Part shown: positions 1-17,867 of the stretch, piece by piece | Position numbering within the stretch: position 1 is the first letter of the stretch | Layout: the number at the start of each line of letters is the position of its first letter | NCBI GenBank assembly: GCA_964387845.1 | Contig: CAYLXA010000002.1 | Span: 128,001-192,000 of the forward strand | DNA: 64,000 nt | DNA from: an uncultured bacterium | GTDB lineage: Bacteria; Omnitrophota; Omnitrophia; Omnitrophales; Abzuiibacteriaceae | Direction of reading: 5' to 3' | Position numbers and translations under genes: made by a program | Notes under the pieces: generated by a model | Databases searched by the model: none | What the model saw: the letters and a program-made list of their open reading frames with translations, nothing else | Told to the model about the DNA's origin: nothing

Positions 1-222
1 TCAGAAATCTCCAAGTCTTTGTCCAATGCTCAAACTGAGATTTTGGGCCCGGCGCCGCTGCCGTTCTATAGGTTAAGAGGCCATTTTCGCTGGCATCTAA
101 TGATAAAAGTCAAAAACCAGACCGAGCATCCGCTGCTCGCAATTCGCCAGGCGATTCAATCAGCTAAAAAAGTCAGCAAAGTCTTTATGGCGGTTGATAC
201 GGACCCGGTCTCCATTCTCTAG
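1..222 (+). CDS. priA: Primosomal protein N' (PriA), C-terminal fragment; the gene starts upstream of the window
   Basis: Open frame from position 1 in the same frame as the listed ORF at 19. C-terminal '...LPFYRLRGHFRWHLMIKV...' resembles the PriA C-terminal domain. Confidence 0.6.
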   Translation, partial: SEISKSLSNAQTEILGPAPLPFYRLRGHFRWHLMIKVKNQTEHPLLAIRQAIQSAKKVSKVFMAVDTDPVSIL

Positions 223-274
223 AGCTATTTTCACATCTTTTCCGCTTTTCTGAATCGTGCTAAAATATGCCGCT

Positions 275-763
275 ATGGCGATTCTAAAAGTGCTGACATA
301 TCCCGATCCGATCCTCAAAAAGAAGGCAGAGCCTGTTCAAACAATCGGCCCCATAGAGAAAAAACTCATCCGCGACATGATCGAGACCATGTATACCGAT
401 GACGGAGTCGGCCTTGCAGCGCCGCAGGTCGGTGTATCGAAACGCATTTTTGTAGCCAGCCCGCACGCAAAGCCCGGAGAAGAAATGGTTTTCATTAATC
501 TTGAGATTCTAGAATCCTCCGGAACTCAAACCGGGCCGGAAGGGTGCTTGAGTCTTCCCGGCGTATCCGGACAAGTTCAGCGCGCCAGGAAAATTAAATA
601 CAAAATGATGACTGAGGACGGCAAATGGGTCGAGGGTGAAGCCGCTGATTTCTTGGCACGAGTTATTCAGCATGAATTAGACCATTTGGACGGAAAATTA
701 CTGATTGATCGCGTTGATTTTACGCAGCGCCAGGAAATCCTCAGCGAGTACCAGCTCATATAA
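275..763 (+). CDS. def: Peptide deformylase
   Basis: Motifs GLAAPQVG, EGCLS and HELDHL. ATG at 275 gives MAILKVLTYPDPIL, a typical def N-terminus. The ORF track's 257 is a GTG extension. Confidence 0.9.
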   Translation: MAILKVLTYPDPILKKKAEPVQTIGPIEKKLIRDMIETMYTDDGVGLAAPQVGVSKRIFVASPHAKPGEEMVFINLEILESSGTQTGPEGCLSLPGVSGQVQRARKIKYKMMTEDGKWVEGEAADFLARVIQHELDHLDGKLLIDRVDFTQRQEILSEYQLI

Positions 764-770
764 ATACCCG

Positions 771-1706
771 ATGAAACTTGTTTTTTTTGGCTCTTCCGAT
801 TTTTCCATTTCTGTATTAAACGTGCTCACGGACTCTGATCATCAAGTCGTGTGCATCGTCACAACGCCGCCCCGCAAAAAAGGCAGGGGACAAAAAGAAT
901 CTCCGACGGTCGTGCAAAGCTGGGCCGAAAATAAATCAATTCCCGTTTTAGCGCCTGAAAAAATTAATACGCCGGAATTTGTCGAAAAAATAAAATCCTT
1001 ACAACCGGATTGTTTGGTAGTGGCTTCGTATGGAAAAATGATTCCTGATGCGGTGTTAAAAATCCCCGCACAGCAGCCGCTGAATGTACACCCCTCCTTG
1101 CTTCCAAGGTATCGAGGTGCAGCGCCCATCGCGCGGCAGCTTTTAAACGGAGAAGCGATCAGCGGCGTCACAATTGCACGCATCACATCAAAATTGGATG
1201 CCGGTGAAATCATTGCCCAGCAGCAAGTTAAGATTCTGCCGGATGATAATGGTATTTCGCTCGCCCTTCGGCTGGCAAAATTGGGCGGAGATCTAGCGCT
1301 TAAAGTACTTGGTGAAATTGCCAAAAATAAAATCAAACTTACACCCCAAGATGAATCAAACTCCAGTTATGCCGAGAAGCTCAGGCCTGAAGAGGGGCGA
1401 ATTGATTGGAGCCAATCGGCTGATCAAATAAATCGGCAAGTACAGGCCTTGGTTCCGTGGCCATGCGCTTACGCATTTTTCAATAAAATCCGCATCAAGG
1501 TCCTGGAGGCCGGCGTGGGGCAAAAAATCTCGGAAGATTTACAACCTGGAAGCATTGTTAAAATTGACCCGAAAGGTACCCTTGCCATTCAAACGGGATC
1601 GGGAATCTTAAATCTTAAGACAATTCATCCGGAATCAGGAAAAGCAATGAATGCTTATCAATTCGCGCTCGGGCGGCATCTGAAAGCGGGCGATCTTTTC
1701 TTATGA
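771..1706 (+). CDS. fmt: Methionyl-tRNA formyltransferase
   Basis: MKLVFFGSSDFS... N-terminus and formyltransferase core (NVHPSLLPRYRGAAPI). Classic def-fmt pair. The ORF-track start at 705 is a TTG extension overlapping def; ATG 771 follows the def stop. Confidence 0.9.
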   Translation: MKLVFFGSSDFSISVLNVLTDSDHQVVCIVTTPPRKKGRGQKESPTVVQSWAENKSIPVLAPEKINTPEFVEKIKSLQPDCLVVASYGKMIPDAVLKIPAQQPLNVHPSLLPRYRGAAPIARQLLNGEAISGVTIARITSKLDAGEIIAQQQVKILPDDNGISLALRLAKLGGDLALKVLGEIAKNKIKLTPQDESNSSYAEKLRPEEGRIDWSQSADQINRQVQALVPWPCAYAFFNKIRIKVLEAGVGQKISEDLQPGSIVKIDPKGTLAIQTGSGILNLKTIHPESGKAMNAYQFALGRHLKAGDLFL

Positions 1707-2860
1707 ACAAAACAAAAATACTACATCTAACGACCCATTTGAATATTGGCGGTATCACAACCTATATTTATTTATTGGGCAAGGGACTTGACTCGGCTCA
1801 TTATGAGACCTCTGTTTTTTCAAGCGGCGGTGAAATGGAAAAACAATTCAACAAGTCCGGAATTCGTACTTACGCGTCACCATTCAGAACCAAGAGCGAA
1901 TTAAGCCCGAAGCTTTATTTCGCCATTCCGGAAGTAATTCGCATTATTAAAAACGAAAATATTAATTTATTGCATGCACACACCCGCGTTACGCAAGTCA
2001 TGGCGTGGTGGATCCAGAAAATCACCGGGATTCCTTATGTCTCAACCTGTCATGGTTTCTATAAAAGACGGCTAGGCAGGCGTTTGCTGCCGGCTTGGGG
2101 CAATAAAGTAATCGCGATTAGCCCGCCGGTGGCTGACTCTCTGGTAAACGAATTTAAGGTTCCTGCTGAAAAAGTTAAAACCATTTTGAATGCTATCGAT
2201 ATTGATACTTTAGAGGATTTGGTTCGACAAAAAAATCAGTCAAGCATTACCATCGAATATGATTTGCAATCCACAAAACCTATTTTGGGAATAGTGGCTC
2301 GGATTGTAAAAGATAAGGGGCATGAATATTTGCTTAAGGCCTTCGCGCAGCTGCTGCCTCAATATCCGGACTTGAAATTATTGGTGGTTGGAACCGGCAG
2401 TTATTTGTCCGACGTTAAAAAGCTGGCTGATCAGTTAAGCCTCACTAAAAATTTAACATTTGTGGGCAATCTTAATGATGTTACGAAAGCGCTGGCAGTG
2501 ATTGATATTTTTATATTACCCGCTGTCTGGCGCGAGGGTTTTGGCTTGTCGATTGTCGAGGCGATGGCATTAAAGAAACCAGTTATTGCAACCAATATCT
2601 GGGCTCTCAATTCATTGGTCCAAAACAAAGTGAACGGACTTTTGATTCAACCCAAAAACGTTACAGAGCTGGCTAGTGCGATTACGGAGCTGATTGAAAA
2701 TCAAGACCTGAGAAGAGCGGTAGGTGAAAAAGCTTACAAAACCGTGCAGGAACAATTCTCAATCAAGCGAATGACACGGGATTTCGATCGCCTATATCAA
2801 CAAATACTGCAATCTGACAGCAGATTAGCCGGCAAGAAATCTTCAGCGATGGCGCGTTGA
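1703..2860 (+). CDS. Glycosyltransferase family 4 (GT1-fold) protein
   Basis: N-terminal GT4 region (HLNIGGITTY) and C-terminal GT1 domain with the EGFGLSIVEAMA motif. Overlaps the fmt stop (ATGA). Confidence 0.8.
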   Translation: MNKTKILHLTTHLNIGGITTYIYLLGKGLDSAHYETSVFSSGGEMEKQFNKSGIRTYASPFRTKSELSPKLYFAIPEVIRIIKNENINLLHAHTRVTQVMAWWIQKITGIPYVSTCHGFYKRRLGRRLLPAWGNKVIAISPPVADSLVNEFKVPAEKVKTILNAIDIDTLEDLVRQKNQSSITIEYDLQSTKPILGIVARIVKDKGHEYLLKAFAQLLPQYPDLKLLVVGTGSYLSDVKKLADQLSLTKNLTFVGNLNDVTKALAVIDIFILPAVWREGFGLSIVEAMALKKPVIATNIWALNSLVQNKVNGLLIQPKNVTELASAITELIENQDLRRAVGEKAYKTVQEQFSIKRMTRDFDRLYQQILQSDSRLAGKKSSAMAR

Positions 2861-2884
2861 CAGTCTTTTCAGTATCTGTATAAT
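2857..2884 (+). promoter_or_regulatory. Near-consensus sigma-70 promoter upstream of gap (TTGACA-N16-TATAAT)
   Basis: TTGACA at 2857-2862 and TATAAT at 2879-2884, read directly. An AGGAGG Shine-Dalgarno site sits at 2930-2935 before ATG 2944. Confidence 0.6.
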
Positions 2885-2931
2885 ACCGAGATTGCGTCTT
2901 TTTAAAATGTTTAGTCATTTAGTGTCATTAG

Positions 2932-4047
<1,116 letters not shown>

Positions 4048-4084
4048 CCCGGACTACTTTTCTTAAATTCCTAAAGGTGGGGAA

Positions 4085-4381
4085 ATGCTGAAGTTCCGCC
4101 TTCAAGTAATGAGCCTGAAAAGAATCTTGTTTGACGCTGACGTCGAACAAGTTCATATTTTCGGCGATGAGGGCGAGTACGATCTTTTGGCCTATCACTA
4201 CCCTATTATTGGCGCCTTGCCGGAAGGCGAGGTCCACATCAAAGACCACAAAAACATCCCGCTTCGGGCAGGTGTGGCGCTTTTTCGTCAGAACCGCTGC
4301 CTGATTATTATCGAAGAAAAGGATGCGGAAGGCGCACCAACCGACAAGCCTTCCATCAACCCAATAGGCAAGAAAGACTAG
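4085..4381 (+). CDS. F-type ATPase epsilon-subunit-like protein (AtpC N-terminal beta-sandwich domain only), not next to atpD
   Basis: By-eye alignment to AtpC: L.VVS.E..F.G.VE...V.G.EGE.GI...H.PL...L.PG...I..... Good SD (AGGTGG) precedes it. The stop overlaps the cdaA start (TAGATG). Confidence 0.5.
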   Translation: MLKFRLQVMSLKRILFDADVEQVHIFGDEGEYDLLAYHYPIIGALPEGEVHIKDHKNIPLRAGVALFRQNRCLIIIEEKDAEGAPTDKPSINPIGKKD

Positions 4382-5143
4382 ATGTGGCTTTCAGCGTTTG
4401 CTTTTATTGTTTCCATCGTTTTTCTGATCCGCAGTCTTGAAATAATTCCCGGCGGCCAGCCGCTTTTAAATGCATTGGTGTGCCTATTTTCACTGTTAGC
4501 AGCCCTCTTCTTTCTTCCTGGCGAGTTGATTAGTTCGGCAATTTTAGAGGGTTTCGGGTGGTTTGTTGCAATCTTTGCCGGCAGTCTTGTTTTGATTGAA
4601 TTTGTTCAATTGATTTTTAAAAGACTTTTGCGGTGGGGATCGCTCCGATTGCAAACCACGGCCGGTCTTTCTCCGGAACATGACGAAATTTGCAAAGCGC
4701 TTGATCACATGGCAAAGCAGAAAACCGGCGCCCTTATCGTCCTTGAACGTAAAGGATCATTGAAGCATTTGTATGAAAATGGGTTTCAATTCGATAGTGA
4801 TGTTCGAGCTGAAGTCATCATCTCGCTTTTCGACAAAAATTCGCCGTTGCATGACGGCGCAATGATTATCAGCCAAAACCGGATCAAAGCATTAAAAATC
4901 ATCCTTCCATTAACTACGCGTTCTGATGTACCGCTCGGGATCGGGACCCGCCACCGTTCGGCAATCGGCCTGACTGAGACAACGGATGCCATTGCGCTTA
5001 TCTCATCGGAAGAGCGGGGCATGCTAAGCATTTCTTACCAAGGCGCTTTGGTAGTAGCCAACTCTAAAAACCAGTTCGCAGAACTCTTAAAACGAGCACT
5101 GAAGGGCTTTCCGATCATTGAGCCTGTGCAAGAGTCTGACTAA
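4382..5143 (+). CDS. cdaA: Diadenylate cyclase CdaA (c-di-AMP synthase), membrane-anchored
   Basis: Three N-terminal TM helices, then a DAC domain with DGAMII and GTRHRSAIGLTE motifs and ...ISSEERGMLSI. Confidence 0.85.
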   Translation: MWLSAFAFIVSIVFLIRSLEIIPGGQPLLNALVCLFSLLAALFFLPGELISSAILEGFGWFVAIFAGSLVLIEFVQLIFKRLLRWGSLRLQTTAGLSPEHDEICKALDHMAKQKTGALIVLERKGSLKHLYENGFQFDSDVRAEVIISLFDKNSPLHDGAMIISQNRIKALKIILPLTTRSDVPLGIGTRHRSAIGLTETTDAIALISSEERGMLSISYQGALVVANSKNQFAELLKRALKGFPIIEPVQESD

Positions 5144-5158
5144 TTTTGTCATATTTTC

Positions 5159-5186
5159 TTGATTTTCCGCTAAACTCGCGTATAAT
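5159..5186 (+). promoter_or_regulatory. Sigma-70-like promoter (TTGATT-N16-TATAAT) driving a short transcription unit
   Basis: TTGATT at 5159-5164 and TATAAT at 5181-5186, read directly. A strong terminator follows at 5396-5427. Confidence 0.5.
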
Positions 5187-5209
5187 TACATTACTTTTTG
5201 GAAAACTCG

Positions 5210-5359
5210 ATGGAAAACACTCTGAACCTAAAACACTTTAAAAGCAGTGTAAAACCCGCGACAGGCGCCGTGTCGATGGCGTGGTCTATTATGGGCCACG
5301 GCTATTGTCATCGCCGCAAGCTCGTGGGCTTGAAGGAGGTTCAAGCGTTACTATCGTAA
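5210..5359 (+). CDS. Candidate 49-aa small ORF (MENTLNLKHFKSSVKPATGAVSMAWSIMGHGYCHRRKLVGLKEVQALLS) inside the promoter-terminator unit; a non-coding RNA is an alternative
   Basis: The ATG lies ~20 nt after the -10 element with only a weak RBS. It is below the ORF-track length cutoff and was translated by hand. Confidence 0.25.
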   Translation: MENTLNLKHFKSSVKPATGAVSMAWSIMGHGYCHRRKLVGLKEVQALLS

Positions 5360-5395
5360 AGTAGTTTAAAGTAGTAAAAGCAAAATCAACTTAAG

Positions 5396-5427
5396 CCCAT
5401 GGCTGAAATTCAGTCATGGGTTTTTTT
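5396..5427 (+). terminator. Rho-independent terminator
   Basis: cccatggctgaa / ttcagtcatggg stem of ~11 bp with one G-U pair, followed by a TTTTTTT run. Confidence 0.7.
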
Positions 5428-5445
5428 ATTTTCAGGAGGTTTCAG

Positions 5446-5661
5446 ATGAGACAGACAGCAAAGCTGGTCCCAAAAGCCGGCTTCTTTACGGTCAACAAGG
5501 ACCCGGTAAAATTGACGGCCCTTTTATACCTGCGGGAAGCGCTTTTGGCGGAGCAGTATGAAGAGTGCGCCGAATTTGTGCGGATCGCGGAAGAATTCGG
5601 TGCGCACGGGTTTGAAATCCAGAATTTACTGGAAGACCCGAGGCGCATGCCGAAGGCGTGA
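5446..5661 (+). CDS. Small hypothetical protein with a UVR-like motif
   Basis: AGGAGG SD at 5434-5439 then ATG 5446. The LREALLAEQYEECAEFVRIAEEFG stretch resembles the UvrB/UvrC (UVR) interaction motif. The ORF-track start at 5416 lies inside the terminator T-run. Confidence 0.5.
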   Translation: MRQTAKLVPKAGFFTVNKDPVKLTALLYLREALLAEQYEECAEFVRIAEEFGAHGFEIQNLLEDPRRMPKA

Positions 5662-5846
5662 TTTTGGTGCCGGTGTTATGACTTTAACTAATCGCAACTT
5701 GAGATTCCTTGTTCGCCATTGGTTTTTGAAGGGGACGGGTGTGTTCGGGTTTTGTAAAATAGCGCTAGTGTTTATCGGAAGTGAACTATATAATCAAAAA
5801 CAGAAATTATTTTTTACCATTTATTCTATTGACTGCACGATGCCGT

Positions 5847-6221
5847 ATGAATCAAAAAATCGCTCTTTTCCTTTTATTGTCTGTGATTACAAGCTGTTCT
5901 GGAGGGCATGTTCTCGCTAAATGGGCGGTCGTTCAAGCGGAAGACACGTTTGCAAAAGCGTCCGATATGCGCCATGATAAGAACAAGCACGCTGGGCGCA
6001 TCCGCCTTTACGAACGTGCCTGCGCGCAGTTTGTTAAGGCTTATGAATTAGATCCGGGCGTATTTACGCTTTACCGCATTGAAAACGCAATCACCGCCTG
6101 TGCGTGGGCAGAAAACTATGCCGCAAAAGAAATCATGCAGAATTTTGAATTTGATTACATTGATCAACATCCGACCGAAGCCGAATACGGCGATGCCATG
6201 CCGCCCATAAGTTTTGAGTAA
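5847..6221 (+). CDS. Hypothetical lipoprotein
   Basis: MNQKIALFLLLSVITSC signal peptide with a lipobox (ITSC). The ORF-track start at 5781 is upstream of the signal peptide. Confidence 0.55.
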   Translation: MNQKIALFLLLSVITSCSGGHVLAKWAVVQAEDTFAKASDMRHDKNKHAGRIRLYERACAQFVKAYELDPGVFTLYRIENAITACAWAENYAAKEIMQNFEFDYIDQHPTEAEYGDAMPPISFE

Positions 6222-6223
6222 TT

Positions 6224-6916
6224 ATGCCGCCAACGACTCAGAAAAACTTCAAATTATCACCCTCAACGCTAAATTTATTTCTAGACTGTCCAAGGTGTTT
6301 TTGGCTCGAGAAAGTGAAGGGGATCAAGCGGCCGCGCGGCATTTTTCCGTCGCTTCCGGGCGGCATGGACCGCGAAATCAAAAATCATTTTGATATTTTC
6401 CGCGCAAAAAAGAAACTCCCGCCGGAATTGTCATCACCGGTTTTTACGGGCATAAACCTTTTTGATGCTCAAAAACAGCTCGACTTGTGGCGCAATTGGC
6501 GCACCGGTTTGGAATATCATGACGAAGGCGGTAATGTGTTGAGCGGTGCGCTCGATGATCTGCTCGTCCAAGGCGATCTCTACATTCCGTTTGATTACAA
6601 AACGAAAGGCTCGCCGACGACCGAAGAAGATGCGGTCAAATATTATCAAAATCAATTAGACTGTTACACGCTCATGCTGGAAGCCAATGGAATGAAAAGT
6701 GCCGGATTCGGAATTCTTTTGTATTATTCGCCAAAATTAGTTTCAGAAAACGGAAGTGTTGCATTTCAAACACAACCGATTAAAATAGAAACAAAGTCGG
6801 AGCGCGCCAAATCAACCTTTGCGCGCGCCCTTAATTTAGTGAAAGGTCCAATCCCTTCGGTTAATTTTAATTGCGAGTACTGCACCTGGAACAACAAGCT
6901 GCGTGCCGCCAACTGA
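6224..6916 (+). CDS. PD-(D/E)xK nuclease, Cas4/DUF83-like, with a predicted Cys4 Fe-S cluster
   Basis: N-terminal LSPSTLNLFLDCPRCFW (Cas4-like CxxC), a D...D-Y-K catalytic triad (DDLLV...IPFDYKTKG), a QhxxY motif (YYQNQLDCY), and a C-terminal CEYC. Confidence 0.65.
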   Translation: MPPTTQKNFKLSPSTLNLFLDCPRCFWLEKVKGIKRPRGIFPSLPGGMDREIKNHFDIFRAKKKLPPELSSPVFTGINLFDAQKQLDLWRNWRTGLEYHDEGGNVLSGALDDLLVQGDLYIPFDYKTKGSPTTEEDAVKYYQNQLDCYTLMLEANGMKSAGFGILLYYSPKLVSENGSVAFQTQPIKIETKSERAKSTFARALNLVKGPIPSVNFNCEYCTWNNKLRAAN

Positions 6917-6929
6917 GTAAAGGTGTTTT

Positions 6930-7742
6930 ATGAAACCCAATTTTGTTCCGTTTATTATTGCATTCATTGTCATCACATTTATCGCTTCGGGCTGCTCGGT
7001 CAAAGTGATCGAGGACGGCGAAGCGGGCGTCAAGGCAACTCTCGGAAAAATCGAAGACAAGCCACTGGGGCCGGGGTGGTACATTTTCTTTCCGATTGTT
7101 TCTTGGATTGAAAAATGGAACGTAAAAACACAAGAAATAAAAGAAACCGCCAGCGTTCCTTCATCGGAAGGCCTCATTTCCACGCTGGACGTTTCGGTGC
7201 TTTACAATACATCGATTGATAAGGTCGTGTCTGTCCGCACAACAACAGGCTACAATTATAAAGAAATCATCTTGGAGCCCTTTGTCCGCGAGTCAATCCG
7301 CAATGTCGTGAGCGGCTATGAAGTGAAAGCGCTTTTTAGCGAAAAAAGCAGGAAGGAAATCGGAGAAAAAATTCTTCAGTTTCTGAGAGAAAAATTAGAA
7401 AGCCGCGGCATCACGGTCCAGGACGTTCTGTTGCGTGATGTGCGCCTGCCGCAAGCGTTTAGCCAAAGCATCGAAATCAAGCTCAAAACCGAGCAAGAGG
7501 CCCTTCAAAAGGAATTTGAGCTGCAAAAAGCCAAGAAAGACGCTGAAATTGAAGTTGCGCGCGCAGAAGGCGTTGCCAAAAGCAACCGAATCATTGCCGA
7601 CAGCATCAATGAAAACTATCTTCGGTATAAATGGATTCAAGGCCTTCAAAACACGAGCTCTCAAGTGGTTTATGTGCCGACCGAAGCAAACCTTCCGATT
7701 TTAGAGGCAAATCGGTGGAAAGCCGCGGCTGAAAAGAAATAA
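6930..7742 (+). CDS. SPFH/Band-7 (prohibitin/HflK-like) domain lipoprotein
   Basis: Signal peptide with a lipobox (IASGCS), then an SPFH-type core and a coiled-coil EAxQ-rich C-terminus. Confidence 0.7.
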   Translation: MKPNFVPFIIAFIVITFIASGCSVKVIEDGEAGVKATLGKIEDKPLGPGWYIFFPIVSWIEKWNVKTQEIKETASVPSSEGLISTLDVSVLYNTSIDKVVSVRTTTGYNYKEIILEPFVRESIRNVVSGYEVKALFSEKSRKEIGEKILQFLREKLESRGITVQDVLLRDVRLPQAFSQSIEIKLKTEQEALQKEFELQKAKKDAEIEVARAEGVAKSNRIIADSINENYLRYKWIQGLQNTSSQVVYVPTEANLPILEANRWKAAAEKK

Positions 7743-7747
7743 TATCA

Positions 7748-8302
7748 ATGAACAAAAAAGCTTTGGTGATACTGGCAAATGGTTGCGAAGAAATCGAAGC
7801 CGTTACTCCGATCGACGTCCTGCGCCGTGCAGGCGTTGAAGTAACGGTTGCAGGCCTGGATAGCAAGGTCATTACGGGCGCTCAAGGTATTAAATTCGAG
7901 ACAGATTTATTGTTGAAAGATTACAAAGTAACGCCGGATGCCATTATTTTACCCGGCGGTGCCCAGGGTGCGCGGAATTTAAGCCAATCCAAAGAAGTTT
8001 TGGAAGTCGTAAAATACTTGCACGATCAAAAGCGGCTCGTGGCTGCCATTTGCGCGTCTCCGGCTGTTGCATTATCGCCGACTGGGATTTTGGCAAACCG
8101 CCAGGCCACTTGCTATCCCGGCTTCGAGAAGGAATTCCCGAGAAATGTTATTTTTAAAGAAGACCGCGTCGTGATTGATCAAAATATCATTACGAGCCGC
8201 GGCCCCGGATCAGCGCTTGAGTTTGCACTTAAAATTGTCGAAGAATTGGTATCCAAAGAAAAGGCGCAGACACTCAGGGAAGGGATGCTTGTGAAGGTAT
8301 GA
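7748..8302 (+). CDS. DJ-1/PfpI family protein (ThiJ/YajL-like)
   Basis: Typical length of 184 aa. Nucleophile-elbow motif AAICASP and the GGxxGA pattern. Confidence 0.8.
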   Translation: MNKKALVILANGCEEIEAVTPIDVLRRAGVEVTVAGLDSKVITGAQGIKFETDLLLKDYKVTPDAIILPGGAQGARNLSQSKEVLEVVKYLHDQKRLVAAICASPAVALSPTGILANRQATCYPGFEKEFPRNVIFKEDRVVIDQNIITSRGPGSALEFALKIVEELVSKEKAQTLREGMLVKV

Positions 8303-8421
8303 TTACCGAGAGCAAATGTCCGGCCTGCAATTCGGAGTTGGTGATAAAAAAAGCAAAATTCATCTGCTCGGTCTGTCATTTAATTGTTGAAACTTGCTGC
8401 GACGGCGGAAAGTGTGATTAA
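8299..8421 (+). CDS. Candidate 40-aa zinc-ribbon protein (CPAC...CSVC...CC..GGKC)
   Basis: Translated by hand: MITESKCPACNSELVIKKAKFICSVCHLIVETCCDGGKCD. The ATG overlaps the DJ-1 stop (ATGA) and its TAA overlaps the next ATG (TAATG). Below the ORF-track cutoff. Confidence 0.4.
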   Translation: MITESKCPACNSELVIKKAKFICSVCHLIVETCCDGGKCD

Positions 8422-8690
8422 TGGCTAAATTTTTTGACCGGCACTTCAAAACAGCGCTTGTGGTCCTTGCCGCGGTTTTTCTGTGGATTTATTACGTAAG
8501 CAGCCAAAACGGGCGTTATCAGGTAGAGCGCTACGATACGGATATTCATATTTTTGACACTCAGCGCGGCATTTACTATAAAACCACTTCCAGCGGTTCT
8601 GTTGATGTCATCGATCCGATCGGCGGGTCTGTTAAGTTCAAAAAACTTCCCTTTATGATTAAAGAGCGGAAATTCATTGCCCGCGAATAG
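8421..8690 (+). CDS. Hypothetical single-pass membrane protein
   Basis: N-terminal TM helix (ALVVLAAVFLWIYYV); no recognisable domain. Translationally coupled to the upstream gene. Confidence 0.5.
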   Translation: MAKFFDRHFKTALVVLAAVFLWIYYVSSQNGRYQVERYDTDIHIFDTQRGIYYKTTSSGSVDVIDPIGGSVKFKKLPFMIKERKFIARE

Positions 8691-8746
8691 TTTGATAAAC
8701 CCCCTGGAAAGCCCTCTTTTTATCTGACCCAAATCCTCCGAACGGC

Positions 8747-8775
8747 TTGTAACTTCGCGCAGTCAGCGCTATAAT
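8747..8775 (+). promoter_or_regulatory. Sigma-70-like promoter upstream of glgB (TTGTAA-N17-TATAAT)
   Basis: TTGTAA at 8747-8752 and TATAAT at 8770-8775, read directly. ~40 nt leader to ATG 8816. Confidence 0.5.
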
Positions 8776-8815
8776 AAAAGCCTTTTCCTAACTATAATCA
8801 AGAGAGGGACTTGGG

Positions 8816-11062
8816 ATGGCAGTAAAAAAATCACTGCAAAAAACCTCGCACCTGTCCAACGAACGCGATAAACGCATCGAACTCATCGCGCGATTCGAAG
8901 ACGATCAACCGGCGCTTACTTTAGGAGCCCATCTTTTATCCGATCCCGATAAAAGAATCATTATCAGCGCTTATTTGCCGCGCGCTGCCGAAGCTTGGGT
9001 AAAACCGCTCAACGGCAAACAAAAAAAGCAGCCGATGAAAAAAATTCATCCCTCCGGGCTGTTTCAAACCGTTTATACCGATGAAAAGAGCTTGTTTCCG
9101 TATCGTTTCGAATCCGTTGATGATTCCGGTTATCGCACGGAATTTGATGATCCGTATGTCTATTCAACCGATATTACGGACTATGATCTGCATTTGATGG
9201 GTGAGGGAAACCATTTCAAAAGCTATGAAAAGTTGGGCGCAAGAGTCAAAACATTCAACGGAGTAAGCGGCGTTCATTTTTCCGTCTGGGCACCGAATGC
9301 CAAAAGCGTTAGCGTTATCGGCAACTTTAATCATTGGCAGCCGGGCGTGCACCCGATGAATCGACTGCAATCCAGCGGTGTCTGGGCATTATTTATTCCC
9401 GGGCTTAAATCCGGAGAAGTCTATAAATATGCGATTAAATCCTGGGTGGATGGTAAAATTCGGGAAAAATCAGACCCCTACGCATTTCAAACCGAACTCA
9501 GGCCGCGCTCGGCTTCAGTGGTCCCCTCAACAATTCCATACAACTGGCACGACTCCGGCTGGCTTAAAGAACGTGCGCAAACCGATATTTTCCGCAAGCC
9601 AATCGCAATTTACGAAGTGCATCTGGGCTCTTGGAAACGTGACGAAAAGAAAAATTGTGGGTTTCTGAATTACAGAGAGCTGGCGCACCAGTTGGTGGAA
9701 TATGTGAAGTGGATGGGATATACCCATATCGAATTATTGCCGATCGCGGAACATCCGCTCGATGAATCGTGGGGCTATCAGGTCATTAATTATTTTGCAC
9801 CGACCAGCCGGTTCGGAACGCCGGATGATTTTCGTTACTTTATTGATCATTGCCATCAAAACCAAATCGGCATCATTTTAGATTGGGTACCCGCACATTT
9901 TCCGAAAGATGATCATGGGCTTGCCGATTTCGACGGAAAACAAATTTACGCATATGAAAATTGGAAAAAGGGCGAACACAAAGAATGGGGAACTTACGTT
10001 TTTGACTACGGGCGCAACGAAGTCCGGAACTTTTTAATCTCGAACGCTCTTTTCTGGCTCAGCGAGTATCACATTGACGGGCTCCGGATTGATGCGGTTG
10101 CTTCAATGCTTTACTTGGATTATTCGCGCGCAGAAGGAGAATGGGAACCAAATGAGCACGGCGGCAGGGACAATCCCGAGGCGGTACAATTCCTCAAGCA
10201 ATTAAATGAAGTGGTGCATTCAAATTATCCCGGCGTTTTGACCATCGCCGAAGAATCAACCGCGTGGCCCGCAGTTTCCAGGCCGACCTATATGAATGGC
10301 CTTGGCTTCAGCATGAAATGGAACATGGGTTGGATGCACGACATGCTGGACTACTTTTCAAAAGAACCGGTTCACCGGAAATTCCATCAAAACATGCTTA
10401 CATTTTCAATGCTCTATGCATTCACAGAAAATTTTATCCTTCCGATTTCGCATGATGAGGTTGTGTATGGAAAGCGTTCTCTTTTTGAAAAAATGCCTGG
10501 CGATGACTGGCAGAAATTTGCAAATACACGGCTCTTTTTGGCTTACATGTACGCACATCCGGGTAAAAAACTGCTGTTTATGAGCAGTGATTTTGGCCAG
10601 CGATCTGAATGGGATGCGTCGCGATCTATTGACTGGCACTTCATGGACTACGAACCGCACAGACGGCTGAGCCAGTGCGTGCGTGATTTAAATCAAATTT
10701 ACAAAAACCACCGGGCGCTCTACGAAGTTGATTTTGACTGGCCCGGTTTCGAGTGGATCGATTTTTCAGATGCTGATACCAGTTTGATTAGTTTTGCGCG
10801 ATGGTCGCTGGATAAAAAGCAACTCGTCATTTGCGCATTTAATATGACACCCGTGCCGCGCATGCAATACCGAGTCGGGGTTCCGCGAGATGGATACTAT
10901 CAGGAAATTTTTAACAGTGATGCAAAAGAATACGGCGGCAGCGGAATTGGTAATTGCGGCGGGTTTCATTCCGAGAGCATCCCGTGGCACGGCCAGTCAC
11001 ACTCGCTTCATTTAAATCTACCGCCTTTAGGCGCCGTTATATTTTGCTTAAACCAAACGTAA
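8816..11062 (+). CDS. glgB: 1,4-alpha-glucan branching enzyme (GH13)
   Basis: GH13 catalytic signatures (GLRIDAVASMLY, region with EESTAWP, HDEVV). 748 aa with an N-terminal extension. Confidence 0.9.
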   Translation: MAVKKSLQKTSHLSNERDKRIELIARFEDDQPALTLGAHLLSDPDKRIIISAYLPRAAEAWVKPLNGKQKKQPMKKIHPSGLFQTVYTDEKSLFPYRFESVDDSGYRTEFDDPYVYSTDITDYDLHLMGEGNHFKSYEKLGARVKTFNGVSGVHFSVWAPNAKSVSVIGNFNHWQPGVHPMNRLQSSGVWALFIPGLKSGEVYKYAIKSWVDGKIREKSDPYAFQTELRPRSASVVPSTIPYNWHDSGWLKERAQTDIFRKPIAIYEVHLGSWKRDEKKNCGFLNYRELAHQLVEYVKWMGYTHIELLPIAEHPLDESWGYQVINYFAPTSRFGTPDDFRYFIDHCHQNQIGIILDWVPAHFPKDDHGLADFDGKQIYAYENWKKGEHKEWGTYVFDYGRNEVRNFLISNALFWLSEYHIDGLRIDAVASMLYLDYSRAEGEWEPNEHGGRDNPEAVQFLKQLNEVVHSNYPGVLTIAEESTAWPAVSRPTYMNGLGFSMKWNMGWMHDMLDYFSKEPVHRKFHQNMLTFSMLYAFTENFILPISHDEVVYGKRSLFEKMPGDDWQKFANTRLFLAYMYAHPGKKLLFMSSDFGQRSEWDASRSIDWHFMDYEPHRRLSQCVRDLNQIYKNHRALYEVDFDWPGFEWIDFSDADTSLISFARWSLDKKQLVICAFNMTPVPRMQYRVGVPRDGYYQEIFNSDAKEYGGSGIGNCGGFHSESIPWHGQSHSLHLNLPPLGAVIFCLNQT

Positions 11063-11077
11063 ATTGAGCGGAGCCGT

Positions 11078-13573
11078 ATGTCAAAAAATGTTTTTATTGC
11101 AGTTCATGGACATTTTTACCAACCGCCGCGGGAAAACCCTTGGCTGGAAGAGATCGAGGCGCAGGATACGGCAGCTCCGTTTCATGATTGGAATGAGCGG
11201 ATTTATCATGAGTGCTATTTGCCCAATGCTACTGCGCGCGTTCTGGATGAGCATGGGAAAATCATCGATATCGTAAACAATTACGAATCGATCAGCTTTA
11301 ATTTTGGCCCGACACTCCTGACTTGGCTCCAGCACAAACATCCTGAAATTTATCAAAGAATAATTGAAGCCGACAAAAAGAGCTTGTCAGCCCAAAACGG
11401 CCATGGCAATGCAATTGCGCAAGCCTATAGCCACCTCATTATGCCGCTCGCTAATACAAGGGATAAAGAAACGCAGGTGCGGTGGGGGATTGAAGAATTC
11501 AAATTCCGGTTTAATCGAGCGCCAGAATCTATGTGGCTTCCGGAAACGGCCTGCAATGAGCAAACGCTTGAGGTTTTGGTTGCTCACGGCATCCGGTTTA
11601 TCATCCTAGAACCCAATCAAGCAGAAGCTGTCCGGCCGCTGGGCCATCATGATTGGCAGGATGTTTCATCCGGTACAATTGACCCGAAACACCCATACCG
11701 GTGTTTTCTAAAGAATAATCCTCACCAATTCATCGATATTTTCTTTTATGATGGCCCGATCTCAAAAGATATTGGTTTTGCAAATTTGGCTTTTGATGCA
11801 AAAATTTTTGTAGATCGCTTGATCCACTCGATCGATCACCACAACACTCAAAACCAAATTATTCATACGGCAACGGATGGTGAAACTTACGGTCATCACA
11901 AGGCATTTGGTGAGCGGGCGCTGGCGTATTTATTGCAAAGGGAAATTCACAATCATAACATTCAGCTCACCAATTACGGCGAATACCTGTCCAAAAATCT
12001 GCCGCAACACGAAGTGAAGTTAAAAGAAGGAATTAACGGGCTCGGTACCAGCTGGAGCTGTGCGCATGGCGTGGGCCGTTGGATGGAAAATTGCGGATGC
12101 CGCGGCGGCGGGCCCGCGTCTTGGACGCAGCATTGGCGCAAACCGCTTCGGGAAGCGTTGGACTGGCTGCGCGATGAACTGTCAAAAGTTTATGAAGAGT
12201 TTGGCGGTAAATATTTGAAGAATCCCTGGGAAGCGCGCAATCAATATATCCGCGTCGTGCTCGACCGCAGCGATCAAAATGTCAAAAATTTCTTATCGGA
12301 GCAGGCGCATTCGCTTAATGATATCCCGGCCTGCTTGAAACTGCTTGAGATGCAGCGCCATGCAATGCAGATGTATACCAGTTGCGGCTGGTTTTTTACG
12401 GAACTTTCCGGAATTGAAACCGTTCAAATCATGCAATATGCAGCGCGAGCCATTCAGCTTGCCCGCGAATTGACCGGAAAATCTCTCGAGGAAGAATTTG
12501 TGGAACGGCTTTTCCATGCCAAAAGCAACGTAGCGGAATTTAAAGACGGACGGGGTGTTTATGAAAAACTAATCCGGCCGAAAGAGATCACGCTAAATCA
12601 TATTGCGGCTTATTACGCAATCACGTCGCTTTTTGACGACGACGAGACGCACCGCGATGAAGTCGACCTTTATTGCTTCAAGCTTAAAATTCATCATTAT
12701 CACAGCGAATCGTTCGGTAATTTAAAACTGACCTACGGCCGCGCTTCAGTCAAATCTCAACTGACCTGGGAAGAAAAAGATCTGGCCTTTACCGTTTTGC
12801 AGTTTGGGCTTTACGATTTCCGGTGTTGCGTCAAAGATTTCACCGAAGAACAAAAATTCGAATCGGAAGGGAGGGTCCTGTCAGAGGCCCTCCATTCACT
12901 TGATTTGGTGGGATTGCTCCGGAAAATCGATTCCTTTTTCGGCGATGTTAATTTTTCGCTCCGCGATTTGCCTTATCCCGAGCGGCACAAAATCGTTTCA
13001 ACGCTGTCTAAAGAGGCCATCGAAAAAATCAGCGCTGCTTACGAAACGCTTTATGCAGAAAACAGTAAAATGAATAAAATTTACCGAGACATCAACTTGC
13101 CGATTCCGGCCGAGATACGCTTTGCCGTTCAGCACACACTCGGGAAGCAGTTGGAATTACAGCTTAAGAAATTATCCGCTGCCGGTTTTCAGGCTAAAAA
13201 AGCCCAAAGCGTTTCACGCACCATCGAAACAGCAAGATCTCTGGGCGTTGAAATTAAAACGGAAGCGATCACGCACATGCTCAGCCACGAACTCGCTCAG
13301 AAAGCGCGGCTATTGGCGGTTGAAATGAAGGCTGAGTTTATCTCCGAATGCCTTTATATTTTGCGGATTGCGAAAAAATTGGGCACAGAATTGGAAATCC
13401 GGGAGGCGCAGGATTATTTGTTTAATTTCCTCCAAAAATCAAAACAAGGCGTCAATGCTGCGGCTGAAATCATTAATAACCCGGCGAATCATCTCGCTCA
13501 ATTGGTGACCAATTTAAACATGCATCCTCATTTAATTCCGAAGTCAGCCTCAAAACAGGAGCAGGCGTGTTGA
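11078..13573 (+). CDS. Glycoside hydrolase family 57 protein (alpha-amylase / glucanotransferase / branching type) with a ~300-aa C-terminal extension
   Basis: GH57 N-terminus HGHFYQPPRENPW, a catalytic core with conserved E/D residues (ATDGETYGHHK), 831 aa. Confidence 0.8.
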   Translation: MSKNVFIAVHGHFYQPPRENPWLEEIEAQDTAAPFHDWNERIYHECYLPNATARVLDEHGKIIDIVNNYESISFNFGPTLLTWLQHKHPEIYQRIIEADKKSLSAQNGHGNAIAQAYSHLIMPLANTRDKETQVRWGIEEFKFRFNRAPESMWLPETACNEQTLEVLVAHGIRFIILEPNQAEAVRPLGHHDWQDVSSGTIDPKHPYRCFLKNNPHQFIDIFFYDGPISKDIGFANLAFDAKIFVDRLIHSIDHHNTQNQIIHTATDGETYGHHKAFGERALAYLLQREIHNHNIQLTNYGEYLSKNLPQHEVKLKEGINGLGTSWSCAHGVGRWMENCGCRGGGPASWTQHWRKPLREALDWLRDELSKVYEEFGGKYLKNPWEARNQYIRVVLDRSDQNVKNFLSEQAHSLNDIPACLKLLEMQRHAMQMYTSCGWFFTELSGIETVQIMQYAARAIQLARELTGKSLEEEFVERLFHAKSNVAEFKDGRGVYEKLIRPKEITLNHIAAYYAITSLFDDDETHRDEVDLYCFKLKIHHYHSESFGNLKLTYGRASVKSQLTWEEKDLAFTVLQFGLYDFRCCVKDFTEEQKFESEGRVLSEALHSLDLVGLLRKIDSFFGDVNFSLRDLPYPERHKIVSTLSKEAIEKISAAYETLYAENSKMNKIYRDINLPIPAEIRFAVQHTLGKQLELQLKKLSAAGFQAKKAQSVSRTIETARSLGVEIKTEAITHMLSHELAQKARLLAVEMKAEFISECLYILRIAKKLGTELEIREAQDYLFNFLQKSKQGVNAAAEIINNPANHLAQLVTNLNMHPHLIPKSASKQEQAC

Positions 13574-15435
13574 TCGACTCTGAATCAAACAAACTCGGAG
13601 CCGGGCATGCCGATGAGCGTTACGCTTACTTTTTGTCGGCTCCCAGCGCCGAACATTGGAAACGCATCGGCCTGCGCCGGCGCGGTGGAATTTTGGCGCC
13701 TCTTTTTTCGATTTATTCTGAAAGCAGTATCGGAATCGGGGAATTTCCGGATCTTCGACTGCTGGCAGACTGGTGCAGAGACACGGGTCTTTCCATCATC
13801 CAGTTATTACCGCTCAACGATGTCGGATTTACTTTCCGTCCTTACGATGCCGACAGCACCTTCGCAATTGATCCGATGTATTTATCGCTTGATCGCTTAG
13901 TCGGAGTTGACCCAAGGCCCCTTCGGATGCGGTCGGCGGTTCTGCGTGCGCGCTATCCTCGCAATCATTCGAGAGTCGATTATGGAATCAAGCGTGCTAA
14001 ACTGGATTTTTTATGGGAAGCTTTCGCCAAATCCGAGCACAAACAAAATTCCAGATTTCTCGAGTTTGTGCGCCAAAACGCTTATTGGCTCAGCGATTAC
14101 GCCATGTTCCGCGTTCTAAAAACTCTCCACAAAGAAAAATCCTGGGAAGCTTGGCCTGAAAAATTCAAAAGCCGAAACAAATCGGCCCTGCGAGAAGCAG
14201 AGAACGAACACAGAGAGAAAATTGAATTTCACAAGTGGGTTCAGTGGCAGGTTTTTGAACAATTTCGCGGAGCCAAAAACGATTTAGCGCAAAGAAATAT
14301 TTTGCTGATGGGTGATTTGCCTTTCTTGGTTTCGCGCGATAGTGCCGATGTGTGGTCTCATCCGAATTTATTTAAACTCGACCGCCTGGCCGGCGCGCCT
14401 CCCGATCTTTACTTTGCGTTGGGGCAGCGCTGGGGAATGCCGCCTTACAATTGGGAGAATATTGAAAGCGAAAATTTTTCTTATTTAATTGAACGGCTTC
14501 GCTACGCGGAAAATTTTTATGACTGCTTCCGTATTGATCATTTTGTCGGGCTTTTCCGAATCTGGACAATCGCAGCTGATGAACCACTTGAAAACGGCGG
14601 TTTAAACGGCGCATTTGATCCGCCGGAAGAAACGAAGTGGGAAGAACACGGAAGACGCATTTTGTCGGTCATAACTCGGAATACAAAAATGCTCCCGTGC
14701 GCCGAAGACCTCGGCGTTGTGCCGCCGTGTTCGTTTAAAGTCCTTGAAGAGTTCGGCCTGCCCGGTATGGACATCCAGCGCTGGATGCGCGACTGGGGAA
14801 AAACGTACGAATTTTTGAATGCCGAACGTTACCGGAAAAATTCCTTGTCTACCATTTCGACGCACGATATGTCTATCTTCGCTGCCTGGTGGCAATTTGA
14901 GGCCGGAACCGTCGACGAGGAGCTGTATCGGCGCGCTTTAAAAAAGGCCGGGCTTGATTTCGAAAAACTCAAAAATCACTTATTTGATATCAAGCATTCG
15001 ATGCACAAAAAATTACGGTGGAAAAAAGACATCAAAACTGTTTCAAAGTATCTTCAGATATTGCAAATTCCCGAAACTGCGGCCGGAGAGTTAATTTATT
15101 TGTTTGTGTCATCGTTTGATGAAAAGGAAAAAGCGCTCAGGTTTTTTGATTTTGAGAACGGAGCAAAATCGCCGGAAGTCCGCGAGCTCCTGAAAACCGC
15201 GATCCGTAAAAATTTGGAAACCGATTCCATTTTCAATATCCAATTAATCCAGGATTGGCTGTGCCTTTCGGAAAATTGCTTCGCCGACGCTTGGAATGCA
15301 CGGGTTAATTTTCCGGGTATAATGAGCGACCAAAATTGGTCAATCGTGATGCCGATATCGCTGGAAGAAATGCGGCAGCTGGAAATCAATCCTTTCATCA
15401 AGTCTATGGCCGAGGCTTCTTACCGCACAGAATAA
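13567..15435 (+). CDS. malQ: 4-alpha-glucanotransferase (amylomaltase, GH77)
   Basis: GH77 signatures (RGGILAPLFSI..., GDLPF, IDHFVGLFRIW). GTG start overlaps the GH57 stop; SD caggag 7 nt upstream. Confidence 0.85.
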   Translation: MLIDSESNKLGAGHADERYAYFLSAPSAEHWKRIGLRRRGGILAPLFSIYSESSIGIGEFPDLRLLADWCRDTGLSIIQLLPLNDVGFTFRPYDADSTFAIDPMYLSLDRLVGVDPRPLRMRSAVLRARYPRNHSRVDYGIKRAKLDFLWEAFAKSEHKQNSRFLEFVRQNAYWLSDYAMFRVLKTLHKEKSWEAWPEKFKSRNKSALREAENEHREKIEFHKWVQWQVFEQFRGAKNDLAQRNILLMGDLPFLVSRDSADVWSHPNLFKLDRLAGAPPDLYFALGQRWGMPPYNWENIESENFSYLIERLRYAENFYDCFRIDHFVGLFRIWTIAADEPLENGGLNGAFDPPEETKWEEHGRRILSVITRNTKMLPCAEDLGVVPPCSFKVLEEFGLPGMDIQRWMRDWGKTYEFLNAERYRKNSLSTISTHDMSIFAAWWQFEAGTVDEELYRRALKKAGLDFEKLKNHLFDIKHSMHKKLRWKKDIKTVSKYLQILQIPETAAGELIYLFVSSFDEKEKALRFFDFENGAKSPEVRELLKTAIRKNLETDSIFNIQLIQDWLCLSENCFADAWNARVNFPGIMSDQNWSIVMPISLEEMRQLEINPFIKSMAEASYRTE

Positions 15436-15497: not shown

Positions 15498-16691
15498 ATG
15501 AATAAGCAGACCATTTCAGATATCGATGTCAAAGGCAAGCGCGTTATTATCCGTGCCGATTTCAATGTGCCTCTTGATAAGTCGGGAAACATTACAGATG
15601 ATGCCCGCATTGCCAAAACCATTCCAACAATCAAAAATTTGCTCGAGCGGAAAGCAAAAGTTGTTTTAATGTCTCACTTGGGTCGCCCAAAAGGGAAGCC
15701 GGAGGCAGAGTTCAGCCTGGCGCCCGTCGCCAAACGGTTAACCGAACTTTTGAAGCAACCTATCGAACTAACGCCGGACTGCGTCGGGCCGGAAGTCGAA
15801 TCAAAAGTGAAAAACCTGAAAGATGGCCAAGCGCTTCTGCTTGAAAATTTGAGATTTCACAAAGAAGAAGAAAAGAACGATCCCGCATTCTCCAAACAAC
15901 TCGCTTCGCTTGCTGATATTTATGTCAATGACGCATTTGGCGCCGCGCACAGGGCACATGCATCAACGGAAGGTATCGCGAAGCATTTGCCGGCTGTTGC
16001 AGGCTTTTTACTTGCAAAGGAAATTGAATATTTCAGTAAGGCGCTCGAAAACCCCGACCGGCCGTTTGTAACGATCCTGGGCGGAGCCAAAGTTTCGGAC
16101 AAGATTAAAGTCATTGAAAACCTGCTTTCAAAAGTAGACGGGTTGTTGATCGGCGGCGCCATGGCATACACGTTTTTAAAATCGCAGGGACTGGCAATCG
16201 GAAAATCCAAACTCGATGAGCCCGGCATCGATATTGCCAAACAGATTTTAGCGAAGGCAAAGCAAGAAAAAATAGAAATTCTGCTTCCTGTCGATCATGT
16301 CGTGTCGCAGGAGATTTCTGAAAATGCCCCTACTAAAGTTGTCGACGAGATTCCTGAGGGCTGGATGGCGGTCGATATCGGTCCTAAAACCGTTCAGGAA
16401 TTTTCAAAGCGTTTATCCGCCTCCAAAATGGTGATTTGGAACGGCCCGGTGGGCATATTTGAAATGAAACCATTCGCTAACGGAACCAAACAACTTGCCG
16501 ATACATTAAGCAAGTTAAAAGCAACTACCATTATCGGCGGCGGAGACACGGCTGCAGCGGTTAAAGAATTTGGATACGAAGAAAAAATGTCGCACGTCTC
16601 AACCGGCGGCGGCGCATCGCTTGAATTTCTAGAAGGAATTGAACTTCCGGGCGTTCGTGCGCTGAACAACAAATCGAAAGCAAAGGTTTAA
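15498..16691 (+). CDS. pgk: Phosphoglycerate kinase
   Basis: Full-length 397 aa with conserved PGK motifs (RADFNVP, GGGASLE). Confidence 0.95.
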
Positions 16692-16692
16692 T

Positions 16693-17478: not shown

Positions 17479-17867
17479 CCGTTCTTATTACAGCGATTCA
17501 TATTCTCGTTTGCTTGGTTTTAATTTTAGTAATTCTATTGCAAGCCGGGCGCGGAGCTGGTTTGAGCTGGGGTTCTTTCGGCGGCGACCCGCAATCCGTA
17601 TTCGGAACCAAGTCAGCTACATTCTTAAAAAAAGCAACCACCGTGTCTGCGATTTTATTTTTATTAACCTGCATCGGGCTTAATATTATCGAGACGCATA
17701 AGTCAAAATCACTTTTTTCGACCGGTAATACGCAAGTCGACATCGAAAAAATCAAGCAGGCATTAGAGCAAGTGAAAGCCGAAGAAGCGAAAAACCCCCA
17801 GACCGCTACGCCGGCAGCCGGCGCGACAACGGAAACACCGGCCGCTGAAACCAAATCCGAAAACTAA
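17475..17867 (+). CDS. secG: Preprotein translocase subunit SecG
   Basis: Two TM helices and the glycine-rich LLQAGRGAGLS motif. Conserved pgk-tpiA-secG order. Confidence 0.8.
   Translation: MTVLITAIHILVCLVLILVILLQAGRGAGLSWGSFGGDPQSVFGTKSATFLKKATTVSAILFLLTCIGLNIIETHKSKSLFSTGNTQVDIEKIKQALEQVKAEEAKNPQTATPAAGATTETPAAETKSEN

Follow-up and report, generated by a model that had tools for sequence, protein, structure and literature searches.

We analysed a 64-kb stretch of DNA from an Omnitrophota bacterium (the window, by which we mean that whole stretch; coordinates are 1-based, on the forward strand) and, within it, an open reading frame (ORF) of 98 amino acids (aa) whose product resembles the epsilon subunit of F-type ATPases. 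The gene lies directly behind gap and directly ahead of a gene for a membrane-anchored diadenylate cyclase (DAC; Table 1). An earlier note, made from the sequence alone, had described it as an epsilon-like gene between gap and a cyclase gene with no ATP-synthase gene nearby, and this was borne out across all 64 kb: searches by tblastn, using as queries the proteins of the ATPase cluster described below, found no F-type alpha, beta, gamma, b-delta or c gene and no pilB in the window, nor did the window contain a Walker-A motif of F-/V-type catalytic subunits.

Since a sigma-70-type site precedes gap and no strong or convincing terminator-like site was found between gap and the end of the DAC gene, a single gap/epsilon/DAC transcript is plausible, and the site ahead of gap would be its likely promoter. 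The earlier note had the epsilon stop codon overlapping the ATG of the cyclase gene; the hexamer TAGATG is present, but the two codons abut and share no bases. Termination-reinitiation is possible at this junction.

Table 1. Positions of the features discussed, in the window and in the loci compared with it
Sequence	Feature	Position	Strand	Basis or remark
Window	Promoter-like site, perfect sigma-70 consensus (TTGACA-16 nt-TATAAT), 60 nt 5' of gap	2857-2884	+	12/12 pattern match only
Window	gap, glyceraldehyde-3-phosphate dehydrogenase, upstream neighbour of epsilon	2944-4047	+	Gp_dh_N and Gp_dh_C; 93% identity in genus-level relative
Window	Ribosome-binding site of epsilon gene, AGGTGGGG, rated good	4075-4082	+	Direct sequence reading
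Window	Short epsilon subunit of F-type ATPase, 98 aa, intact ORF, ATG start	4085-4381	+	PF02823, AlphaFold2 (AF2), Foldseek
Window	TAG-ATG junction: epsilon stop (4379-4381) abuts DAC start (4382)	4379-4384	+	Direct sequence reading
Window	Membrane-anchored DAC, 253 aa, CdaA-like	4382-5143	+	PF02457, 125.8 bits; DAC domain at residues 105-222
Window	Conserved promoter-like site (TTGATT-16 nt-TATAAT), directly 3' of DAC gene	5159-5186
Window	Conserved leader element	5159-5445
L009	Counterpart of leader element	11081-11392
L051	Counterpart of leader element	4222-4533
Window	Conserved 51-53-aa ORF inside leader	5198-5359		In-frame 6-nt indel
Window	14-bp terminator hairpin and T-run	5393-5423
Window	71-aa ORF behind leader, real start	~5446		Preceded by AGGAGGT
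Window	Band 7/SPFH gene	6930-7742
Window	pgk, tpiA, recG	15498-19976		~11 kb downstream of epsilon
L024	ATPase cluster	7090-13818
L046	ATPase cluster	2458-8657
L044, L045	ATPase cluster
L024	Giant ORF, 2,312 aa	62-7000
L001	Giant ORF, 2,267 aa	1062-7865
L046	AGVNWDDL-repeat protein	3-2339
L014	Orphan epsilon, then pgk, tpiA, secG, recG	1762-8857
L043	Apparently ordinary beta-then-epsilon pair	1-1236		Epsilon-like match 1039-1236

The 98-aa protein is a short epsilon subunit

The 98-aa protein is a true epsilon of an F-type rotary ATPase, in a short form that consists of the beta-sandwich only. The earlier note had aligned it by eye with the N-terminal beta-sandwich of AtpC, and the profile search agreed: the protein matched Pfam PF02823 (ATP-synt_DE_N) with 40.8 bits against a cut-off of 27 (E 2.2e-10), residues 4-77 covering profile positions 1-78 of 80. 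It also matched all 15 of the 15 NCBIfam epsilon models, in every case with a score under the model's cut-off (TIGR01216, 36.3 vs 67.25; the PRK models too), which is partly due to the missing C-terminal domain. The core motif G-x-E-G-E-x(6)-H-x-P-L-x(2)-A-L-x(2)-G can be read directly in the sequence. An AF2 model built from 35 family sequences had a mean predicted local distance difference test score (pLDDT) of 91, with blocks 1-80 at 96-98 and eight strands within residues 4-78; residues 79-98 were a low-confidence disordered coil with no helix, and there is no C-terminal helical hairpin. When the model was compared with the PDB using Foldseek, the best 50 of 73 matches (E <= 0.001) were all F-ATPase epsilon (or mitochondrial delta) subunits, the top match being E. 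coli epsilon (1aqt; E 4.9e-8, root-mean-square deviation 1.6 A over 80 residues).

An exhaustive profile search over 1.84 billion representative proteins showed that the protein belongs to a small, specific family of 27 clusters at E <= 1e-10, nearly all of 65-116 aa, beyond which the matches grade into ordinary epsilons. The family consensus is F-x-L-x-I ... G-D-x-G-E-[FY]-E-L-L-P-x-H-x-P-L ... N-x-C-x-I-L-x-E-E. Its nearest named homologue is in Abzuiibacterium crystallinum (Candidatus Omnitrophica; Omnitrophia), a genome whose completeness is listed as 100%. Outside the orphan group described below, the closest relatives of the window protein are not the canonical long AtpC proteins but epsilons encoded within an ATPase gene cluster, and since these in-cluster homologues are equally short (75-103 aa), shortness is a trait of the family and not a sign of decay.

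In-cluster homologues belong to an ATPase beside type IV pilus genes

Loci were collected with a profile made from a 13-sequence subset of the more diverse 35-sequence alignment, which yielded 27 metagenome loci, and a separate profile scan of genome contigs gave four loci, the window's own species not being among them. In 16 of the metagenome loci the epsilon-like gene stands directly after an alpha gene and/or directly before genes for a c subunit and a b-delta fusion, and the epsilons of these loci are 48-60% identical to the window protein. Homologues at 51-67% identity are thus placed alongside the other subunit genes of the enzyme. The order is complete in L024, where a 463-aa protein is followed by alpha (ATP-synt_ab), epsilon (52.6% identical to the window protein over residues 4-98), c, the b-delta fusion (OSCP), gamma, beta and PilB (T2SSE and PilZ). 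It recurs in L020, L022, L023, L027-L030, L032 and L033; ten of the 16 loci are long enough to extend from the 463-aa protein, or from alpha, as far as gamma, beta or PilB, and the shorter ones show parts of it. The loci with both alpha and c of an in-cluster copy have epsilon between them. Four further loci (L039-L042) have the variant order epsilon, c, b-delta, alpha and so on.

The ATPase concerned is an F-type cluster beside type IV pilus genes and not a textbook atp operon. Its c subunit keeps the rotor glutamate (in the sequence FAEATS), its beta subunit has an unusual Walker A motif, GGAGCGKS, and its alpha and beta proteins pass the ordinary equivalog cut-offs (atpA, 518.6 vs 484.45; atpD, 524 vs 462.85). 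The cluster always opens with the 463-470-aa protein, which has a signal peptide or N-terminal helix, long predicted coiled coils and one C-terminal membrane helix, and for which no family match was found.

Some features of the collected loci are recorded here in their own right. L040, L041 (2283-10422) and L042 carry a more distant cluster in which a 463-aa-like protein is followed by epsilon, c, b-delta, two tandem alpha-like genes, beta and PilB; no gamma gene was detected in L040 and L041 by tblastn. Both the ATPase cluster (L024, L046) and the Abzuiibacterium orphan epsilon (L001) have giant or highly repetitive ORFs beside them. The beta-then-epsilon pair of L043 (Walker A GGAGVGKT at position 43) seems to be an ordinary one and is a contrast to the family studied, and L016, from Chthoniobacteraceae, gave a weak partial match only.

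Orphan copies coincide with clusters that lack epsilon in two genomes

The gene stands alone, without the cluster, in the window, in its near relatives and in four other lineages, and the surroundings differ from one genus to another. In the window group (L009-L012, L017, L051) the order is gap, epsilon, DAC; in Abzuiibacterium the orphan follows a 2,267-aa ORF and precedes a 141-aa gene and an HMA-domain gene; in L005 and L008 it follows a sulfite-reductase gene and is convergent with leuD; and in L014 it follows znuB. No ATPase genes were found within 8-10 kb of any orphan epsilon. No case of two epsilon-like genes in one locus was seen among the scanned loci.

A genus-level relative of the window's organism carries both parts on a single contig, Ga0268299_1000078 (376,988 bp). 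The gap/epsilon/DAC arrangement lies at 227-248 kb (L017), and at 362-377 kb (L046) there follow the 463-aa protein, alpha, c, b-delta, gamma, beta, PilB, PilC, pilins and PilMN, so that the epsilon locus and the ATPase cluster are ~130 kb apart. In L046 the gap between alpha and c is only 21 nt, with no epsilon between them, and two epsilon queries run by tblastn gave no match in the cluster at E up to 0.01. The same holds for Abzuiibacterium crystallinum, where the orphan is on one contig (L001, L013) and an epsilon-less cluster on another (L044, L045). As for the window itself, a search with the L024 alpha matched an alpha protein, P0174, that is listed on one 275,583-bp contig (NCBI, Logan), as are the window's epsilon and DAC proteins; the search also matched P0175, from Abzuiibacterium, and a 90%-cluster mate of P0174, P0279, is on Ga0268299_1000078. 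Besides the orphan, the contig to which the window belongs carries the alpha gene of the cluster. Both testable genomes thus have the orphan and a cluster without epsilon. The 98-aa protein descends from an in-cluster epsilon, and its partner cluster has lost the epsilon gene. The earlier note had considered that this might be the organism's own epsilon and its F1 operon split, which was right in substance: in this lineage the cluster is without epsilon, whose gene stands at another place of the contig.

A neighbour-joining tree built from 26 distinct epsilon-like proteins placed the orphans inside the clade of in-cluster epsilons. The window protein, its near relative and the Abzuiibacterium protein form a group with 85% bootstrap support, which falls to 55% when L007 and L015 are added, and the L014 orphan groups with in-cluster sequences with weak support. 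This topology suggests that one or two relocation events are likely.

Comparison with the genus-level relative gave a proportion of nonsynonymous differences (pN) of 0.041 and of synonymous differences (pS) of 0.69 for the epsilon gene, or a nonsynonymous-to-synonymous rate ratio (dN/dS) of ~0.02, the synonymous sites being near saturation. Its product is 94% identical in the two, and the corresponding values for neighbouring genes are 93% for gap, 83% for def, 79% for glgB and for PD-(D/E)XK, 75% for DJ-1, 72% for GT4, 66% for fmt and 65% for DAC. By these values, gap and epsilon appear as the unusually conserved genes of the neighbourhood. That the DAC gene might be unusually divergent (64-65%) was also considered, and was dropped because fmt (66%), GT4 (72%) and others are similar. 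The epsilon reading frame is intact in every lineage found, and the window protein retains each of the residues that do not vary among orphan and in-cluster members (G27, D28, E29, G30, E31, L35, H38, L45, G63 and N70). The substitution pattern indicates that the orphan epsilon is under strong purifying selection and is not a relic.

The diadenylate cyclase gene and its pairing with epsilon

The earlier note had labelled the downstream gene cdaA, which is only roughly right. The protein is a membrane DAC with a hydrophobic stretch at residues 1-80 (~three N-terminal helices) and the motifs DGA at 158 and RHR at 190; however, its score with TIGR00159 (CdaA) is 140.5, under the cut-off of 188.8, with the alignment confined to the DAC part, and it has no match to the CdaA_N Pfam domain (PF19293) that bona fide CdaA matches carry. 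The ATG at 4382 is supported as the true start by a conserved N-terminus, M(I)WLS, that three lineages share. The absence of the usual partner genes, cdaR/ybbR and glmM, downstream was confirmed, no YbbR or GlmM domain being found in the three ORFs downstream of the DAC gene and no glmM or cdaR among 30 large window ORFs scanned. Neither gene was found beside the two related Omnitrophota-type DAC genes examined.

The gap/epsilon/DAC arrangement occurs in the window, L009/L017 and L051, three lineages of a single genus, and is absent beyond that genus, no DAC gene having been found near the orphan epsilons of other genera. The spacer between epsilon and DAC is 0 nt in the window, 36 nt in L009 and 29 nt in L051, and the epsilon stop codons of the three lineages differ (TAG in the window, TGA and TAA). 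Because the 36- and 29-nt spacers show no alignment to one another and the stop codon varies, the stop-start junction is specific to the window. The two Omnitrophota-type DAC genes, at 43-49% identity, have neighbours unrelated to those of the window: one is beside ATP-grasp and glutamine amidotransferase genes and the other beside an RND pump and msrAB. A literature search found no link between c-di-AMP (cyclic di-adenosine monophosphate) or CdaA and the ATP synthase epsilon subunit. The most likely interpretation is that the neighbourhood of epsilon and DAC is an accident of gene order in one genus. Adjacency in this genome alone is what the earlier note had named as speaking against its lead, and the result comes near to that, since the adjacency is limited to one genus.

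Other features of the neighbourhood

The DAC gene is followed by a conserved element (Table 1) in which a promoter-like site leads into a ~240-nt leader that ends in the terminator hairpin and T-run, ahead of the 71-aa ORF. Across three lineages the leader stretch is 87-89% identical, and the alignable flanking DNA ~73-75%. Its folding energy is -88 kcal/mol (z = -6.6), and in an RNAalifold consensus, upstream segments can alternatively pair with each arm of the terminator, as in an antiterminator, with six pairs changed on both sides. Rfam searches of the whole window and of 5100-5500 gave nothing above gathering scores, the best being a weak His_leader (E 0.018). Its features make the leader a candidate for a new attenuator or riboswitch-like element.

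Further downstream, the Band 7/SPFH gene lies between the PD-(D/E)XK nuclease and DJ-1 genes; it is present in the window and in L051 and absent in L009. The window also has pgk, tpiA and recG on the far side of epsilon, and in L014, which is from a different genus, a distance of 2.2 kb separates the orphan epsilon from pgk, tpiA, secG and recG downstream of it. Possibly the orphan settled a single time in a gap/pgk/tpi neighbourhood, which insertions, here the block from DAC to malQ, then broke apart.

Origin and role of the orphan epsilon

Taking these results together, we put at about 75% the probability that the 98-aa ORF encodes the epsilon of the pilus-linked F-type ATPase and has been relocated from the operon. 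The ancestral order would have been that of the 463-aa protein, alpha, epsilon, c, b-delta, gamma, beta and PilB. In the window's lineage, a clean excision would have taken epsilon out of its place between alpha and c to another site; in the window's genus, that site is directly behind gap and ahead of the membrane cyclase gene, where epsilon would probably be transcribed from the strong gap promoter. The TAG-ATG junction would then have arisen by loss of a short spacer in the window's strain. The protein presumably still binds gamma at its foot and the c-ring at its top, coupling the F1 head to the rotor. Without the C-terminal hairpin, it would be expected to lack hairpin-mediated auto-inhibition, which is known from the long epsilons of E. 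coli and Bacillus PS3.

Several points weigh against this interpretation. The loss of epsilon from the window's own cluster is read across from the genus-level relative, and the genomes were covered as loci and contigs, so that a second epsilon gene or a canonical atp operon may lie elsewhere in them. The bootstrap values of the tree are modest and the protein is short. In addition, an a-subunit gene was absent from the window and from all cluster loci as judged by motif and by tblastn with an E. coli AtpB query, a test of limited sensitivity.

Coverage by loci and contigs leaves some room for the orphan to be an extra copy, that is, a spare paralogue, regulatory or non-essential, of an epsilon encoded elsewhere, for instance in a second, canonical atp operon, and Omnitrophota are reported to have varied sets of respiratory F-type, V-type and pilus-linked F-type ATPases (PMC10066038; bioRxiv 10.64898/2026.06.07.730766). 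We nevertheless consider this unlikely. The cluster is without epsilon in exactly the two genomes that have the orphan and keeps it elsewhere, no locus has two epsilon-like genes, the nearest relatives of the orphan are in-cluster epsilons and not canonical long AtpC, and the very strong purifying selection speaks against redundancy. That selection also refutes the idea that the gene is a decaying remnant of an operon now lost, or an ORF arisen by chance, to which an orphan position, small size and the missing C-terminal domain might have pointed: with dN/dS at ~0.02, a frame intact in all lineages found, a good ribosome-binding site, a confident AF2 model and in-cluster homologues that are equally short, we regard its probability as close to nil.

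The earlier note had also raised the possibility that CdaA is co-expressed with an epsilon-fold protein through which c-di-AMP signalling is linked to energy status. The protein would then have been co-opted as a partner or regulator of the cyclase, tying the ATPase or the energy state of the cell to c-di-AMP synthesis, and the two genes are indeed adjacent in three related lineages, are joined stop to start in the window and lack the usual cyclase partners cdaR and glmM nearby. However, the adjacency is restricted to these three close lineages of one genus, with a spacer that varies in length and is not conserved in sequence; orphans at 59-71% identity adjoin instead a giant ORF and an HMA-domain gene, sulfite reductase and leuD, or znuB; and the two DAC genes at 43-49% identity have unrelated neighbours. 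Furthermore, the DAC gene is fast-evolving (65% identity) and epsilon near-frozen (94%), and therefore there is no sign of co-evolution, while the orphan retains all the residues that are invariant in in-cluster epsilons. The proposed link is thus unsupported, and we hold co-option to be very improbable. Only a little less remote, in our estimate, is that the relocation itself was not neutral, so that expression from the gap promoter, in this genus from a place directly ahead of a membrane cyclase gene, would make the amount of epsilon follow glycolytic gene expression and epsilon itself a limiting, regulatory subunit that ties the pilus motor to carbon flux and c-di-AMP signalling. This is kept open because the orphan is near glycolytic genes in two genera (gap in the window, pgk-tpiA in L014) and because the F1-like gliding motor of Mycoplasma recruits phosphoglycerate kinase (PMC11864180).

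The account of the gene as a relocated subunit replaces the tempting lead of an epsilon-fold c-di-AMP regulator with a concrete split operon. To the known subunits of the poorly understood pilus-linked F-type ATPase of Omnitrophota it adds epsilon, a b-delta fusion and a c subunit that keeps the rotor glutamate, with no a-subunit gene detected nearby. Surveys of pathway completeness that seek atpC only within the operon would wrongly score such genomes as epsilon-less. Should the relocation prove to matter for regulation, one subunit of a rotary ATPase would be controlled apart from the rest of the enzyme, which is rare. In itself, the finding is a new organisational detail of a known type of machine and of modest interest.

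Comparison with known systems

The cyclase resembles the CdaA of Firmicutes, encoded in a cdaA-cdaR-glmM operon, in its ~three N-terminal hydrophobic helices and its DGA and RHR motifs; it differs in falling under the TIGR00159 cut-off, in having no CdaA_N match and in having no cdaR or glmM nearby. The window protein has the same beta-sandwich fold and core motif as bacterial AtpC (1aqt; gamma/epsilon complex, 1fs0), and, like AtpC, its homologues are encoded together with alpha, beta, gamma, c and b-delta genes. In contrast to AtpC, it is without the C-terminal helical hairpin, which is the inhibitory, ATP-sensing part of long epsilons, and its gene is outside the operon; in addition, the family has GE[YF][ED]LL where AtpC has GEfGiL, and a conserved N-x-C near the last strand. 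The cluster also differs from the N-ATPases, whose gene order is beta, epsilon, Q, R, a, c, b, alpha and gamma: the Omnitrophota cluster has another order, no a, Q or R gene is present, and its scores against the alt_F1F0 models are below the cut-offs (alpha, 478.8 vs 750.5; beta, 471.3 vs 752; b, 58.2 vs 224.7).

An F-type ATPase of the 'symbiotic' type 2/3 co-located with type IV pilus genes has been described in Omnitrophota (Seymour et al., 2023; PMC10066038), where such pilus-linked loci are reported in every class of the phylum and lie within 10 kb in 57/66 contigs. By homology and synteny, this is the complex to which the epsilon belongs, the clusters studied here likewise having alpha and beta genes and then, directly, PilB, PilC, pilins and PilMN. 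The passages of PMC10066038 on this cluster define it by alpha and beta and mention no epsilon gene, and in its supplementary files 'epsilon' was found in taxon names only; the present analysis adds epsilon, c and the b-delta fusion, and shows that in some Omnitrophota lineages epsilon is outside the pilus-linked cluster.

The type 2/3 F1-like clusters of Mycoplasma have seven genes, one product of which is predicted to be epsilon-like; they lack c, b and delta genes, and an unknown X0 membrane sector has been proposed (Beven et al., 2012; PMC3369863). Both systems are extra or specialised F1-type ATPases tied to surface motility or host interaction. A parallel with glycolysis is a loose one only: the G1-ATPase of M. 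mobile, an F1-like gliding motor, physically recruits phosphoglycerate kinase (PMC11864180), and the orphan epsilon is beside gap here and near pgk-tpiA in L014. The Omnitrophota alpha and beta proteins, however, score far under the cut-offs of the MMOB1660/MMOB1670 and MSC_0619/MSC_0618 models (400.7/600, 416.2/850, 271.1/520 and 380.4/570). With its b-delta fusion and a c subunit that keeps the rotor glutamate, the Omnitrophota cluster is closer to a true FoF1 than are the 'F1-like X0' clusters of Mycoplasma.

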